Of a DNA stretch of 64,000 bases, positions 6,526-11,220 are shown piece after piece. The notes beneath the pieces were generated by a model. That model had not been told where the DNA came from. It saw only the letters and a list, made by a program, of their open reading frames with translations, and searched no databases. Position 1 is the stretch's first letter; each line of letters starts with the position of its first letter. This DNA comes from Candidatus Bathyarchaeia archaeon (GTDB lineage: Archaea > Thermoproteota > Bathyarchaeia > Bathyarchaeales > Bathycorpusculaceae). The stretch lies in contig JBBFKZ010000001.1 of NCBI GenBank assembly GCA_037481775.1, forward strand, positions 179,378-243,377. The letters run 5' to 3'. The position numbers were made by a program, and so were the translations under genes.

Positions 6526-7719
6526 ATGTGGCGGTTGGGCTTCTTCTTCCACGAAATTGCGTTCGGCTTGCTTTCGATATTTATCCCTCTGTATGTAGTA
6601 ACACCAGCTGTTGGTGGTTCACTAGTTGACCTAGGCATAATGACTTCCTTAGCACTGCTTTCGGCTATACCTGCCTCCTTCTTCTGGGGTTACATCTGCG
6701 ACAGAACCAGACATTATAAGCTCTACATTCTTCTGTCGTTTATTTCACTGGCTGTTATACTTTACCTTCTGACCTTCGCCACAGACGTTCGCACGTTCAC
6801 TTTTCTTTACGTAGTAATGGCTGTCCTTCACGTCGCCCATGAAGCACCAAAAAACGTTCTGATAGCCGAGCACTACCCAAGGGAAGATTGGGGGAAATCC
6901 TATGCCCTTTATGAGGGCTTTACGGAGATCGGTTCACTAATTGGCTTGCTAATAGGCTTGTTTACGTTCACAGCTGCTTTAACCCCCCCTCTCATCTTGT
7001 TTCTGTGCAGCGGCTTAAACTTGGCAGCTTTTATTTTATCCATCTTCTTAGTGGCGGATCCGCTTATAATCTTCGAAAGAAGACTGGTCAGCATAGAAAA
7101 AAAGATTGACTACACCTACAACGGCTCGCGGATCTTTGCTAAGCTTTCGGATGGATTATCTCTTCGTGAAAAGTTCAAAAGCGAAAACTTCAAGGTATTT
7201 AGCGCTGGCTTGGTTCTTTTTTCTCTGGCTTCCAGCTTATTCTTCACGCCGCTGCCAATATTCTTCTCCAAAGCGCTTGACTTACCCGAGAACATGGTAT
7301 TCCTGATTTACGTGCTAAATTCCAGCGGCGTCATGTTCGGTTACTTTTTGGCAGGAAAAAAAGCGGCTTCTCCAAATGCAAAATTGCATGTTCAGCGGCT
7401 TGCGCTTCTTCGAGGCACATTAGTTCTCGCATTGGTCTTCATAGTCAATTTGGCTTTCTCGCCGACGCCTTTGGCCTCCGTAATCTTGATTTTCATGGGT
7501 TTCGCATACGCTTTTTATCATATTCTAACGCTTTCGCTGTCTATGGAGTTGATTCCCGCTGGAAAAGCAGGTTTGTTTGATGTGCTTGTGGGCTTAGGCT
7601 CCTCTTTAGGCTCTTTTCTAGGTCCTTTCTTGGCTGAAACCTTTGGTTTTCTGCTTCAGTTCATGATTGCAAGCGCCATATTCTTTATGGCTTATGTGTT
7701 TTTCAAACTTTTTTACTGA
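6526..7719 (+). CDS. MFS transporter
   Basis: 397 aa with about 12 hydrophobic helices; motif-A-like WGYICDRT. Confidence 0.85.
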   Translation: MWRLGFFFHEIAFGLLSIFIPLYVVTPAVGGSLVDLGIMTSLALLSAIPASFFWGYICDRTRHYKLYILLSFISLAVILYLLTFATDVRTFTFLYVVMAVLHVAHEAPKNVLIAEHYPREDWGKSYALYEGFTEIGSLIGLLIGLFTFTAALTPPLILFLCSGLNLAAFILSIFLVADPLIIFERRLVSIEKKIDYTYNGSRIFAKLSDGLSLREKFKSENFKVFSAGLVLFSLASSLFFTPLPIFFSKALDLPENMVFLIYVLNSSGVMFGYFLAGKKAASPNAKLHVQRLALLRGTLVLALVFIVNLAFSPTPLASVILIFMGFAYAFYHILTLSLSMELIPAGKAGLFDVLVGLGSSLGSFLGPFLAETFGFLLQFMIASAIFFMAYVFFKLFY

Positions 7720-7742: not shown

Positions 7743-9197
7743 TTATTCTGTATGTACTCGGAATAGGTCGATGTCTTCGCGCATTGCTGGTGTTAGCTCT
7801 AAGAATTCTCTGACTGCCCGCTCCACGTCTTTCGCTTGTGTTACGTATCTTCCAACGATAATGACGTCCGCGCCTTTCTCCAACGCCTCTTTTGCAGTTT
7901 CCGGTACTATTCCACCTGCGACGGCTATTAGAAATCGTTTGTCCGGGAAGGTTTGGCGCAGTTTCGGTATCAGATCCAGCCCAAGGGTTTTCCCTGTTTC
8001 CTGATCTATTCCTCTGTGGATTACAATCATGTCTGGAAACTCTTTAAGCTGCTTAAGCTTTCCAATGGGGTCTTCCACGTTCAGCATGTCCACAACACCG
8101 TAGATGCCAAGTCGTCTTGCTTCGTGCACAAAAGCGTCTAATGTTTCAGGCGGCGCCAGACCGGCGGCAACCACCGCGTCGGCCGTGTCCTCGTAGGCTA
8201 TGTCAACTTCAACTTTTCCAACATCCAAAGTCTTCAAGTCAGCAATCATAAACGCGTCTTTGGCAACCTGCCGTAGCTCGTTTATCACGCGGGTTCCGTA
8301 ACGTTTGATTAATGGCGTCCCAACTTCGATGATTATTCTGTCGCTTCCAGGCATCTGAGAGAGAACCTTCTTAGCCTTATCCAGTTCTGGTGGGTCAAGC
8401 GAAATCTGCAGGTAAGGCGGTCTCCACAAGCGCGGAACCTTGAAGCCCATTATCGGGTGCTTAGCGCGGTCTTTCTCGTAGAGCATCTTGTCAAGCGAAG
8501 GATACTTATTTAAGGCTCTGCGTAGCGCCAGCTTTGTTGCGCCATAATTGTACTGGTATATCTTGCGATAATCGCTTGCCTGAGGATGAATAAAGACGCT
8601 GCATATGATCACCCAGTCATCCACCTTCTCCCTTGGAATGATGCCCTCCTCCACCGCGTCCGCAACTGCCTTTGCAACCGCAGCTTGGGCTGGACCGAAA
8701 ATTTTCCCAGCATCCTCCATGTTCTTCACAGTAACCTTCGGCACAAGCAGCGTGTGCGGCTTAGGCGGAAGATTCGGCCGAATAACCGACAGCAAAGGCG
8801 TGTGCCCTGCTGAAAGATTCGACAAACTGGTAGCGAAAGCTTGCCCAACAGGCCCGTTTTTGTCGCCTATTAGGAGATCTATATGCGCTACCTCGCTTCC
8901 TTCTCCCAAGAGGGCTTCGCCAATCAGGTATGTAGGCCCTGATTCTTCGACACATTCATCCGTGAACGGCATCGGTATGCGGTTCACAATGTCTTTAAAG
9001 TCGACATTGAACTCTTTAAGCCAAGTGTAAAGAGTATCTCGGTGTATATTAAGCTCCTTTGCGGTGCCTGCAACTGTCGGTCTTGTCGGTTTCTGTCCCT
9101 GCGAAAGTCTGCGTTCAACTTCTTTTTTAGCGGCTTCCGTCACAAGTTTTATGAAATCGTCTTTTGTTTCAGGCTTTTTAGTGTCTATATCCGACAT
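7743..9197 (-). CDS. fae-hps: Bifunctional formaldehyde-activating enzyme / 3-hexulose-6-phosphate synthase with extra N-terminal HTH domain
   Basis: Fae motifs GEALLGEGSEVAHIDL, GHTPLL, GPAQAAVA; Hps motifs IEVGTPLIK, ADLKTLD, AVAGGI. Start moved to ATG 9197, which has a TATA-like box about 35-40 nt upstream. Confidence 0.93.
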   Translation of the reverse strand: MSDIDTKKPETKDDFIKLVTEAAKKEVERRLSQGQKPTRPTVAGTAKELNIHRDTLYTWLKEFNVDFKDIVNRIPMPFTDECVEESGPTYLIGEALLGEGSEVAHIDLLIGDKNGPVGQAFATSLSNLSAGHTPLLSVIRPNLPPKPHTLLVPKVTVKNMEDAGKIFGPAQAAVAKAVADAVEEGIIPREKVDDWVIICSVFIHPQASDYRKIYQYNYGATKLALRRALNKYPSLDKMLYEKDRAKHPIMGFKVPRLWRPPYLQISLDPPELDKAKKVLSQMPGSDRIIIEVGTPLIKRYGTRVINELRQVAKDAFMIADLKTLDVGKVEVDIAYEDTADAVVAAGLAPPETLDAFVHEARRLGIYGVVDMLNVEDPIGKLKQLKEFPDMIVIHRGIDQETGKTLGLDLIPKLRQTFPDKRFLIAVAGGIVPETAKEALEKGADVIIVGRYVTQAKDVERAVREFLELTPAMREDIDLFRVHTE

Positions 9198-9301
9198 TTC
9201 TGTCGCCTCTGCGTCTGTATAGCGAGACGTGTATATAAGAATGTCGGAGCAAAACAATTGTTTCAACGAGAGCACAGCTGTTTTTTCTGAAATTCTGTCG
9301 G
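9190..9301 (-). promoter_or_regulatory. fae-hps promoter with palindromes and repeated TGTCG half-sites
   Basis: CGACA-TTTC-TGTCG (9192-9205); TCCGACATT/AATGTCGGA inverted pair (9190-9198 and 9240-9248); TTATATA on the minus strand (9232-9238); AAACAATTGTTT (9252-9263); TTCTGTCG repeated at 9293-9300. Confidence 0.45.
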
Positions 9302-9496: not shown

Positions 9497-9697
9497 GTGT
9501 CCTGTATGTTTAGGCTTAATTGGGTGTGTTTAAGCTTGATCTTGCTTGGTTTTGTGCTTTTTCTTTACGGCGCTAACTTCTACGACGCAATAGTTGGCTG
9601 GCTGGGCGTTTTCGTCATTCTTGGAGGTGCACTTGCGCTTCTTCTTTTATACATTTATTGCGAGTTAAAGAAACAAGGATCTGTTCAGAAGCCGTAG
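9497..9697 (+). CDS. Small two-TM membrane protein
   Basis: Two hydrophobic helices around YGANFYDAIVGW; basic tail. Confidence 0.65.
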   Translation: MSCMFRLNWVCLSLILLGFVLFLYGANFYDAIVGWLGVFVILGGALALLLLYIYCELKKQGSVQKP

Positions 9698-11220
9698 AGT
9701 CCACTGTACTTTTCTTCTAAATACCGCAAGTAAGGCTCAGCGTCCAGTTTTCTTCCAGTTACTTTAGTTATCAAGTCTGGCGGGTCATACAAGGCGCCAT
9801 GTGAATGAACGTTTTTAGCAAGCCATGCTATGATGTCTTTCGCGTTGCCCTGTGCAAGTTGGCTTCGCCAATCTTTTATATCGCTGGCTAAAGCGGCGAG
9901 CAGCTGCCCACTGTAGATGTTGCCTAAAGCGTAGCTTGGGAAGTAGCCGTAGTACCCGCTTGCCCAATGCGTATCTTGCATCACTCCTTCAGAGTCATTT
10001 TCAATTTTCAAGCCAAGAAGCTCCTCGTACTTTTGATTCCATACCTCTGGCAGCTGACTAACTTCGACTTTGTTTCCGAACAGGTCCTTCTCAATTTGGA
10101 ATCGAATTATTATGTGAAGGCAATAGGTTACCTCGTCGGCTTCCACGCGAATCTTTGAGGGCTTAACCTCGTTTATAGCGTGCACAAACGGGTCTAACTC
10201 AAGATGCGCTAGGCTCGAGCCAGCTATTGCTTTCAGCTTAGGTAGGAAGCTAATCCAGAATTCTCTGGAGCGCCCTACAATGTTTTCCACGAAGCGGGAT
10301 TGAGATTCATGTATACCATAAGAGCAGCTTGCGCCGACAGGCTGGTATTTCCATTCTCTCGGCAGTCCCTGCTCGTACAATGCGTGTCCAGTTTCATGAA
10401 GCACCGAGAAGATTGAAGATGCGAATTCTTCAGGGTAATAGTGTGTTGTAATTCTCACATCGTCATAATATCCCGTGGTGAAGGGATGCTCCGTTTCATC
10501 GATGCGCCCAGCGGCATCCGACGAGCTAACATCGTAGCCCATTGCCTCTGCAAGAGCTTTCGCGATTTGCCGCTGCGCTTCAATTGGAACATTGCATTTA
10601 AGCACCGCTGTATTCGGCTGGTTTGGCGCATTCTGAATCTTCCTAAGCAGAGCAACTAGCCCCTTTTGAAGCTGCTCAAAAATAGGCGCGATTGCCGCAG
10701 CGGTCATTTTAGGCTCAAAAATATCTATAAGCGCATCATAGGGTGTTGCTGTTGCCTTGACTTTCATGAGAATTTCTGCTTTTTCCCGGTTAAGCTCCAC
10801 AAGTTTCTGCAGCTCAGGCTGAAGCAGGCTGAAGCATTTTGCAGCTTTTGCTTTTTTCCAACTGTTCACTGTTAACGCTTGCTGCTTGGCGATTTCTGCA
10901 ACAAGCTTTTCCGGCAGCTGAGTTTGCTCATCATAATTTTTCTTGATAAGATAGACATTCCGCTTTTCTACCTCAGTTAAAGTGTCATATTGTGGGCTTG
11001 CGAGTATTTCGTTTAAGAGCTTTCCAATTTCTGGTGAAGTGCTCATCTTATGGCTGATGCGGCTTAACAGCGCAAGCTGCTGGCTCCGCTGCTCGATGCC
11101 CCTAGGCGGCATCATGGTTTCCATGTCCCAGTGAATTATGGCTTCAGCGGATTGCAGAACAATCAAGTCTTTGGCTAATTCAAGCAGCTTTTTATATGCT
11201 AAGTGCACTTCGGATGCCAT
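9685..11220 (-). CDS. Carboxypeptidase, M32 family (Taq-like)
   Basis: HPF, DVRITT, HETGH, HESQ, IRVEAD, QDTHW and GYFPSYALG motifs. Confidence 0.96.
   Translation of the reverse strand: MASEVHLAYKKLLELAKDLIVLQSAEAIIHWDMETMMPPRGIEQRSQQLALLSRISHKMSTSPEIGKLLNEILASPQYDTLTEVEKRNVYLIKKNYDEQTQLPEKLVAEIAKQQALTVNSWKKAKAAKCFSLLQPELQKLVELNREKAEILMKVKATATPYDALIDIFEPKMTAAAIAPIFEQLQKGLVALLRKIQNAPNQPNTAVLKCNVPIEAQRQIAKALAEAMGYDVSSSDAAGRIDETEHPFTTGYYDDVRITTHYYPEEFASSIFSVLHETGHALYEQGLPREWKYQPVGASCSYGIHESQSRFVENIVGRSREFWISFLPKLKAIAGSSLAHLELDPFVHAINEVKPSKIRVEADEVTYCLHIIIRFQIEKDLFGNKVEVSQLPEVWNQKYEELLGLKIENDSEGVMQDTHWASGYYGYFPSYALGNIYSGQLLAALASDIKDWRSQLAQGNAKDIIAWLAKNVHSHGALYDPPDLITKVTGRKLDAEPYLRYLEEKYSGLYGF

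Follow-up and report, generated by a model that had tools for sequence, protein, structure and literature searches.

The 64,000-nucleotide stretch of Candidatus Bathyarchaeia archaeon DNA analyzed here (assembly GCA_037481775.1, contig JBBFKZ010000001.1, positions 179,378 to 243,377; hereafter the window) carries on its reverse strand a fae-hps gene with an unusual beginning. Our analysis confirms that the gene encodes one polypeptide of three parts: a 75-residue head that is a helix-turn-helix (HTH) domain by prediction, a flexible linker of about 14 residues, and a bifunctional enzyme that joins formaldehyde-activating enzyme (Fae) to 3-hexulose-6-phosphate synthase (Hps). The head is accompanied by a repeated hexamer, CCGACA, that recurs across the promoter, the start codon and the head-coding region of the same gene. 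The open reading frame (ORF; 7743..9197, minus strand) comprises 484 codons plus a stop at 7743-7745, and begins with the ATG at 9197. The frame stays open further upstream to a GTG at 9275, a start that would give 510 residues. The genome to which the window belongs, that of an uncultured archaeon of sediment or hot springs, measures 1.82 Mb and is 96.7% complete.

The enzyme part is a bifunctional Fae-Hps, as the preliminary description had proposed. The NCBIfam profile for this fusion, NF009833, scores 583.2 bits against a cut-off of 274, with residues 90-483 covering profile positions 2-390 of 392. Pfam recognizes Fae (PF08714, residues 92-250, E 6e-73, 244.5 bits against 27) and OMPdecase/Hps (PF00215, residues 261-465, E 3e-34, 119 bits against 27), and TIGR03126 also identifies Fae (266.3 bits against 118). 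The Hps half falls under the cut-off of TIGR03128, the Hps / RuMP_HxlA equivalog-domain model (128.3 bits against 200), and is nevertheless spanned by NF009833 and PF00215, which marks it as Hps of the Fae-fused archaeal type and not as a stand-alone HxlA equivalog. The Fae part condenses formaldehyde with tetrahydromethanopterin (H4MPT), and the Hps part interconverts hexulose-6-phosphate and ribulose-5-phosphate (Ru5P) plus formaldehyde. Ahead of the Fae domain lie 89-91 residues, in place of the roughly 85 first estimated, and they contain the HTH-like string TVAGTAKELNIHRDTLYTWLKEF quoted at that time. The coordinates of all parts, together with those of the promoter elements discussed below, are collected in the table.

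Table. Features of the fae-hps locus, in window coordinates (aa, amino acids; BRE, transcription factor B recognition element)
Feature	Coordinates	Strand	Basis or remark
Whole gene HTH-Fae-Hps	7743..9197	-	full-length relatives in 32 of 41 related genomes
N-terminal HTH domain (predicted), aa 1-75	8973..9197	-	AlphaFold2 model, structural neighbors, invariant residues, sub-threshold Pfam HTH matches
Variable linker, aa 76-89, including non-conserved Met76	8931..8972	-	low model confidence, alignment variability
Fae domain, aa 90-250	8448..8930	-	PF08714, TIGR03126
Hps domain (orotidine monophosphate decarboxylase fold), aa 261-465	7803..8417	-	PF00215, E 3e-34; spanned by NF009833
Distal CCGACA, "-105 site", 54 bp upstream of the -52 site	9296..9301	-	35/108
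CCGACA, "-52 site", 3 nt upstream of the TATA box, at the BRE position	9242..9247	-	105/108
TATA box TTATATA, 34 nt upstream of the ATG	9232..9238	-	conserved in related loci
Shine-Dalgarno-like GAGG (9209-9206), then pentamer CGACA (9205-9201)	9201..9209	-	read from sequence
Inverted TGTCGG overlapping the start codon (A-TGTCGG, Met-Ser-G..)	9191..9196	-	105/108
Two intragenic copies, CCGACA-aga-CCGACA (9089-9084, 9080-9075), encoding P37T38 and P40T41 (KPTRPT)	9075..9089	-	

Of 1066 candidate proteins similar in length, 933 matched residues 1-95 at E ≤ 0.01, which places this N-terminal stretch far from chance; the 120 of these matches that were listed are mostly proteins of 479-484 residues with both Fae and Hps. 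The preliminary description had taken the extension to be a genuine part of the protein, and its homologs bear this out. In 32 of 41 related genomes the match runs from residue 1-8 to residue 484 without an internal stop, and the pattern [IV]HRDTLYxW occurs in 346 stretches of species-representative genomes, 335 of which encode a relative. Among the best 80 titles of that scan, 73 name Bathyarchaeia, Bathyarchaeota or Bathyarchaeales, two Crenarchaeota/MCG and two an "uncultured archaeon"; the remaining three are bins named Acidoferrum, Limnocylindrales and Methanocella. An alignment of 29 heads from relatives at the family and order level leaves P40, T41, H52, R53, D54, T55, L56, W59, V65 and F67 invariant. 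Across 301 sampled genomes of the class the HTH head is present in 69 (strongly in 67) and is nearly confined to the order of the window (families f1, 47/48; f6, 6/6; f7, 12/12; f2, 1/1), with one further genome, G047, from another order. No significant paralog of the head was found elsewhere in the genome of the window, where the next best match has an E value of 0.027. In the source annotations full-length forms are called "bifunctional Fae/Hps", and short fragments "hypothetical protein", "transposase-like protein" or "formaldehyde-activating enzyme, partial". Fae-Hps is present in two copies in each of two same-family genomes, G132 (on C105 and C94) and G197 (on C138 and C58); both copies have the head in G132, and the open frame of the second copy in G197 spans 425 residues.

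The head, called an HTH at the outset from its sequence string, also models as one. AlphaFold2, run on residues 1-75 with the 29-sequence alignment, returned a predicted local distance difference test score (pLDDT) of 87.3 and four helices (12-32, 42-48, 53-62 and 67-73), of which helix 53-62 (nucleotides 9012-9041) is the probable recognition helix. In the model of the full-length protein (pLDDT 71.9) the head is still confident, and values below 50 for residues 78-89 point to a flexible tether. When the head model was compared with 48,161 chains by VIA-align, 17 reached Z ≥ 5, the best (Z 6.4) being an AraC-type regulator, 3mkl_B. Each of the 50 neighbors listed is either an HTH DNA-binding domain or a transcription protein with an HTH (N-terminal domains of TetR, AraC-type regulators and sigma-factor chains), with Z of 4.6-6.4 and a root-mean-square deviation of 1.9-3.6 Å over 49-63 residues, although Z below 8 may reflect a common helical arrangement. 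The weak top rows of a Foldseek search of the PDB were Rex, a sigma factor, TetR, AraC, Fis and a resolvase, and a sequence-profile search of the PDB with the head gave nothing better than a phage protein at E 0.11.

Assignment to a particular family is less clear. The isolated head scores below the Pfam gathering thresholds of GP3_package (24.7 bits against 29.4), HTH_28 (21.2 against 25) and HTH_23 (19.1 against 24.6). At E ≤ 0.01 the 29 heads match HTH_28 in 27 cases, HTH_29 in 26, GP3_package in 25, HTH_23 in 24 and HTH_8 in eight, every time below the gathering score, and HTH_8 gives 10.5 bits against 22 on the whole protein of the window. The original label, "Fis/TetR-like", expresses a resemblance only. 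The head pattern G-T-A-K-x-L-x-I-H-R-D-T-L-Y-x-W-L recalls ...LGIsRxTLYrKL..., which we take to be a signature of Fis/NtrC-type HTH domains (HTH_8), and the nearest language-model clusters in a protein atlas are of the Fis family (score 0.86, a lead only). As a family assignment the label does not stand, since the head reaches the gathering score neither of HTH_8 nor of the transposase/terminase-type families (HTH_28, HTH_29, HTH_23, GP3_package). Membership in TetR was considered and set aside: there is no TetR_N match in Pfam, the head is followed by Fae-Hps and not by a TetR core, and the likeness is one of fold alone, at Z of about 5. The head is thus best described as a predicted HTH outside every curated family. 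Four proteins of 314-641 residues in a 50%-representative library (P0192, P0195, P0199 and P0209) contain six or seven tandem HTH units (...AEIAKKLGIT..TLY.YL..RNVPINR...); their E values against the head profile range from 4e-19 to 2e-8.

In relatives the region upstream of the gene reads tCCGACA-nTn-TTATATA and the gene always starts ATG-TCG-G, so that TGTCGG, the reverse complement of CCGACA, falls on the start codon. Among 108 unique upstream sequences, CCGACA lies at -54 to -48 in 105 and TGTCGG at +1 in 105, and a distal CCGACA lies at -107 to -102 in 35. The distance from the -52 site to +1 is 49-55 bp with a mode of 53, and that from the -105 to the -52 site is 50-54 bp. The hexamers continue into the coding region. 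In 100 sequences we counted 144 copies at +90 to +119, where the KPTKPT motif accommodates two of them 9 nt apart, and 74 copies at +210 to +229.

Codon choice within the head follows the hexamer. Of 257 Pro-Thr dipeptides encoded in the head part, 214 use CCGACA; in the enzyme part of these genes 5 of 49 do so, and in long open frames across the genome 76 of 1213. Proline takes CCG at P40 (82/100), P37 (71/84) and P75 (71/81), compared with 8/100 at the control position P9 and 21% among the proline codons of the enzyme part; threonine takes ACA at T41 in 95/100, compared with 61/100 at T55 and 51/97 at T45. Ser2, whose codon lies within the inverted hexamer, is TCG in 98 of 99 sequences, and TCG makes up 14% of the serine codons of the enzyme part. 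Judged by these synonymous codons, fixed within the first 230 coding bases, the intragenic hexamers are under selection at the nucleotide level.

In the 1.82-Mb genome the hexamer itself is common (527 copies), and its arrangement at fae-hps is not. CCGACA followed after 1-4 nt by TTATATA occurs once, at the fae-hps promoter; other phased pairs of hexamers are at chance level, and the sequence upstream of other TATA-like boxes is A-rich and not CCGACA. Crude longest-ORF starts in this genome yielded no other TTATATA promoter with which the BRE could be compared. In five other genomes of the HTH type, CCGACA-N2-4-TTWWAWA has seven matches, five of them at the fae-hps promoter, and a reversed-pattern control gives 0-4 per genome. 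Clusters of at least three hexamers within 130 bp number three in the genome of the window: the fae-hps locus, C1:176068-176193 and C4:101168-101257. Of the two inspected, fae-hps and the C1 cluster, only the former spans a promoter. The C1 cluster, about 3.2 kb before the start of the window, packs five CCGACA/TGTCGG copies into 125 bp inside the 3' part of a frame for a 326-residue membrane protein (...VIMVSVMSVMGGSIGLLSPDML...), and is probably a coincidence of coding.

Nature has exchanged the head on this enzyme, and the upstream word has changed with it. The enzyme part was found in 189 of the 301 sampled genomes, and 20 of these loci, mostly from other orders, show two further forms. 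Head-less genes start within a few residues of YLIGEA. Other loci from sister orders (L140-L146, L150-L179) have, in place of the HTH, an extension of about 55 residues with the pattern RAPGRIT-EQY-FLE..V..G.Y.S.SEA.RAAI, which resembles a ribbon-helix-helix (RHH) domain. Six of seven members match Pfam RHH_1 (best E 8.6e-6) and all seven match ParD_antitoxin (best 1.9e-4), both sub-threshold; the first member, for example, scores 13.4 bits against 20.5. At E ≤ 5e-20 this form occupies 40 places in 39 of the 301 genomes, and weaker matches are short, unrelated RHH ORFs. All 28 unique upstream sequences of this form have GTGACAC/GTGTCAC ahead of the TATA box. Typically a composite GTGWCAC-N6-GNCAC precedes the box by about 13 nt, and a distal copy lies about 55 bp farther upstream. 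In five genomes of the RHH type the composite repeat has seven matches, six of which lie at the fae-hps promoter.

The association between head and word can be tabulated over the 470 nt upstream of the enzyme part in unique sequences, with L095, L133, L159 and L055 dropped for truncation or frameshift. With an HTH head (n = 106), at least three copies of CCGACA/TGTCGG are present in 105 and at least one GTGACAC/GTGTCAC in a single sequence. With an RHH head (n = 28), none has two or more CCGACA/TGTCGG, and GTGACAC/GTGTCAC occurs at least once in 28 and at least twice in 24. With no head (n = 11), one sequence has at least one CCGACA/TGTCGG and none has GTGACAC/GTGTCAC. The upstream word co-occurs strictly with the type of head, CCGACA with HTH and GTGACAC with RHH. 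A FastTree phylogeny of 139 enzyme parts (six short rows left out; unrooted, with Shimodaira-Hasegawa support only) needs four changes of head label where two are the minimum, which is consistent with few gains or losses. The swap among HTH, RHH and no head offers a ready-made control. Both the candidate operator array on the gene's own promoter and the second, unrelated head in sister orders go beyond the preliminary description, whose reading of the protein as an enzyme-regulator fusion is supported. The searchable literature listings and abstracts contained no account of Fae-Hps with a DNA-binding head.

We favor the view, with a probability of roughly 0.65, that HTH-Fae-Hps is an autoregulating trigger enzyme comparable to PutA, BirA or RbkR; that it binds DNA, in which direction it regulates and which ligand it senses are inferences. 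Each HTH head would recognize one CCGACA hexamer. The hexamers would share one side of the double helix, with intervals of about 53 bp or double that distance: at -105, at -52 over the BRE, inverted at the start codon, at +108/+117 and, in most relatives, at about +215. Single hexamers phased by five helical turns suggest one head per site and cooperative binding by an oligomer. Fae is pentameric and enzymes of the orotidine monophosphate decarboxylase fold are dimeric; the presumed oligomeric enzyme would present several heads, bind the array cooperatively and control transcription of its own gene. Of 24 sequencing runs listed in a search, 20 contain the searched stretch or part of it, and none of those is an RNA run. 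Transcription would begin at about -13 to -15, as judged only from the position of the TATA box, centered about 40 nt upstream of the ATG, and the usual archaeal distance from box to start. On that estimate the start-codon hexamer would occupy about +14 to +20 relative to the first transcribed nucleotide, and the -52 hexamer would overlap the BRE. Archaeal repressors bound at the BRE/TATA or just past the transcription start block TFB/TBP or RNA polymerase. Because the BRE/TATA edge and the RNA polymerase region are each occupied by a near-invariant site, repression is the likelier sign. Binding may be modulated by substrates or products of the enzyme (formaldehyde, H4MPT, Ru5P or hexulose-6-phosphate).

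PutA of Escherichia coli and Salmonella is a bifunctional enzyme with an N-terminal RHH domain that represses its own operon; it is bacterial, handles proline, and switches by associating with the membrane on reduction of its flavin. It is the closest known system in domain order, which it shares with the RHH-Fae-Hps of the sister orders, but its membrane/flavin switch has no counterpart evidenced in Fae-Hps. BirA (biotin ligase/repressor) and NadR combine an N-terminal HTH with an enzyme, as HTH-Fae-Hps does, and the state of the ligand controls their binding to the operator. Unlike HTH-Fae-Hps, they have unrelated enzymes and heads, and dimeric palindromic operators instead of a phased array of hexamers. 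The canonical Fae-Hps of methanogens (FaeB-HpsB, NF009833) resembles the enzyme part at 583 bits but has no N-terminal DNA-binding domain, and the head-less forms within Bathyarchaeia are without both repeats. The closest archaeal precedent is RbkR, which is described as a riboflavin kinase fused to a winged HTH that autoregulates, with DNA binding tuned by its substrate cytidine triphosphate (CTP) and its product flavin mononucleotide, and with operators, including that of its own gene, predicted by comparative genomics (Rodionova et al. 2017, PMC5397151). RbkR is likewise an archaeal metabolic enzyme with an N-terminal HTH-type head, but it is a CTP-dependent kinase with a winged HTH and a multi-gene regulon, whereas the motif of HTH-Fae-Hps is found only at its own gene, as single hexamers phased at about 53 bp that run into the coding region. 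Two of the features expected of a trigger enzyme are seen here: a catalytic and a DNA-binding domain in one polypeptide, the head being an HTH by prediction, and an operator at the enzyme's own promoter, present computationally as a candidate array that is conserved, unique in the genome and co-varies with the type of head.

Other readings of the hexamers have to be weighed against autoregulation. The array might be the operator of a separate transcription factor, with the head serving another purpose, for instance contact with different DNA or RNA, help in oligomerization or localization of the enzyme. This would accommodate the facts that binding of the hexamer by the head is itself deduced, that the head scores below threshold with every curated HTH family, and that its structural scores are the middling ones that small helical domains give. 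We nevertheless consider it unlikely, since the motif tracks the head exactly (CCGACA in 105/106 of the HTH type, GTGACAC in 28/28 of the RHH type, neither with head-less forms), several hexamers lie under synonymous constraint within the coding sequence of the head itself, and no other promoter in the genome of the window turned out to carry the motif, which would be unusual for a free-standing factor. The hexamers might instead act mainly in the mRNA, where UGUCGG would pair with CCGACA some 105-220 nt downstream and mask the start codon, the -52 copy being a strong variant of the BRE. That the sites are exact reverse complements fits such pairing, but the predicted probability is 0.002 for the sequence of the window and at most 0.5 in 69 of 100 sequences. 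Two of the copies, -52 and -105, precede the TATA box and so fall outside the transcript as we place it, yet the -52 copy is the best conserved of all; phasing at 51-54 bp is a property of the DNA helix, and in RHH-type genes every repeat precedes the TATA box. A principal role in the mRNA is therefore improbable.

It would also undercut an enzyme-regulator fusion if translation started internally, at Met76 (MPFTDEC) or near residue 90, and the upstream frame were a leader or a separate small product. Met76 is present in this genome, and the canonical methanogen Fae-Hps is only about 392 residues long (the length of the NF009833 profile). Yet Met76 is confined to one genus, being Met in just six same-genus loci of 19 at the family level, and the majority residue at this position is Thr; no intact locus has a stop or frameshift between head and Fae, and residues of the head are invariant across an order. 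The beginning of the gene is conserved as well, Shine-Dalgarno sequence included. At the aligned position 110 of 113 related loci begin NTG-TCG-G, which makes the ATG at 9197 the conserved start, as the preliminary description had it, and GAGG lies 9-12 nt upstream of it. The conserved TATA box lies downstream of the alternative GTG at 9275. In the window the pentamer CGACA that follows GAGG forms CGACA-gaaa-TGTCG with the start-codon site; the pentamer is kept only in the genus and a few relatives. The apparent short forms that we examined are frameshifted assemblies or run off the end of a contig, and we give an internal start almost no credence.

Several candidates for a stand-alone head gene were rejected. 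In L055, L095, L050 and L084 the assembly is frameshifted and the protein continues in other frames; L033 and G025 run off the contig end. Forty-two proteins of 41-132 residues match the head, and the top matches in the 50%-representative library are short; of four short matches that were read, three (P0179, P0181 and P0186) go on into Fae and the fourth, P0178, stops after 91 residues. The examined subset of the 42 held no convincing free-standing head gene. Multiple frameshifts in fae-hps recur in several long-contig metagenome-assembled genomes (L055, L095, L050 and L084), and such frameshifts create artefactual "stand-alone" heads of 80-118 residues and "Fae-only" forms of 273-306 residues in public protein sets.

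Several observations weigh against autoregulation by the head. The pairing of candidate operator and head is a computational one, and no second target promoter was found in the genome of the window, so regulon logic cannot confirm it. The counted loci are kin, and their counts are not independent events. The array is also uneven: the -105 copy is present in a minority, the gene of the window itself is without the +215 copy, L026 is without the start-codon copy, and L149, of the HTH type from another order, has degenerate copies and one exact hexamer only. Pairing in the mRNA is not negligible overall, the predicted probability for the start hexamer averaging 0.34 and exceeding 0.5 in 31 of 100 sequences, and a residual chance is left to the -52 site being a CGACA-like BRE. 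As for the head, the VIA-align scores of 4.6-6.4 are in the range common for small helical domains, Foldseek gave no match in the PDB at E ≤ 0.001, and no Pfam HTH family reaches its gathering score (best HTH_29, 25.6 bits against 28.1). Finally, no 6-phospho-3-hexuloisomerase scored above the family cut-off in this genome, where the best SIS-domain match is a 401-residue frame with two SIS-like stretches (C6:63205-63933; 68 bits against 160).

It is tempting to speculate further that Fae-Hps is a flux-sensing nucleoprotein machine, a design that would have arisen at least twice, once with HTH and CCGACA and once with RHH and GTGACAC. An oligomer with one head per subunit could use the same-face hexamers to wrap or loop some 330 bp spanning its own promoter and the 5' part of its coding sequence, and might let go of the DNA depending on how far its formaldehyde/H4MPT or pentose-phosphate sites are filled. 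We regard this extension as possible and rather doubtful; if true, it would imply strong selection tying the dosage of a formaldehyde-producing or -consuming step directly to metabolite level in these archaea. Bathyarchaeia are abundant, uncultured archaea of sediments whose gene regulation is almost uncharted, and for a central enzyme of one-carbon and pentose metabolism a candidate protein and a candidate DNA word are now both identified. Autoregulation by the head, if it holds, would provide a second, mechanistically distinct archaeal trigger enzyme beside RbkR, a compact switch responsive to formaldehyde or pentose phosphate, and a case of convergent recruitment of different DNA-binding folds by one enzyme.

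The genomic surroundings are simple. Downstream lies a convergent gene for an MFS transporter (6526-7719, plus strand), and upstream on the same strand a gene for an M32 carboxypeptidase (9685-11220, minus strand); the 487-bp spacer between the latter and fae-hps makes the gene look monocistronic. Within this spacer, upstream of the fae-hps promoter, a hydrophobic ORF of 66 residues on the plus strand (9497-9697), which has no Pfam match, reaches a short way into the end of the carboxypeptidase gene on the opposite strand.

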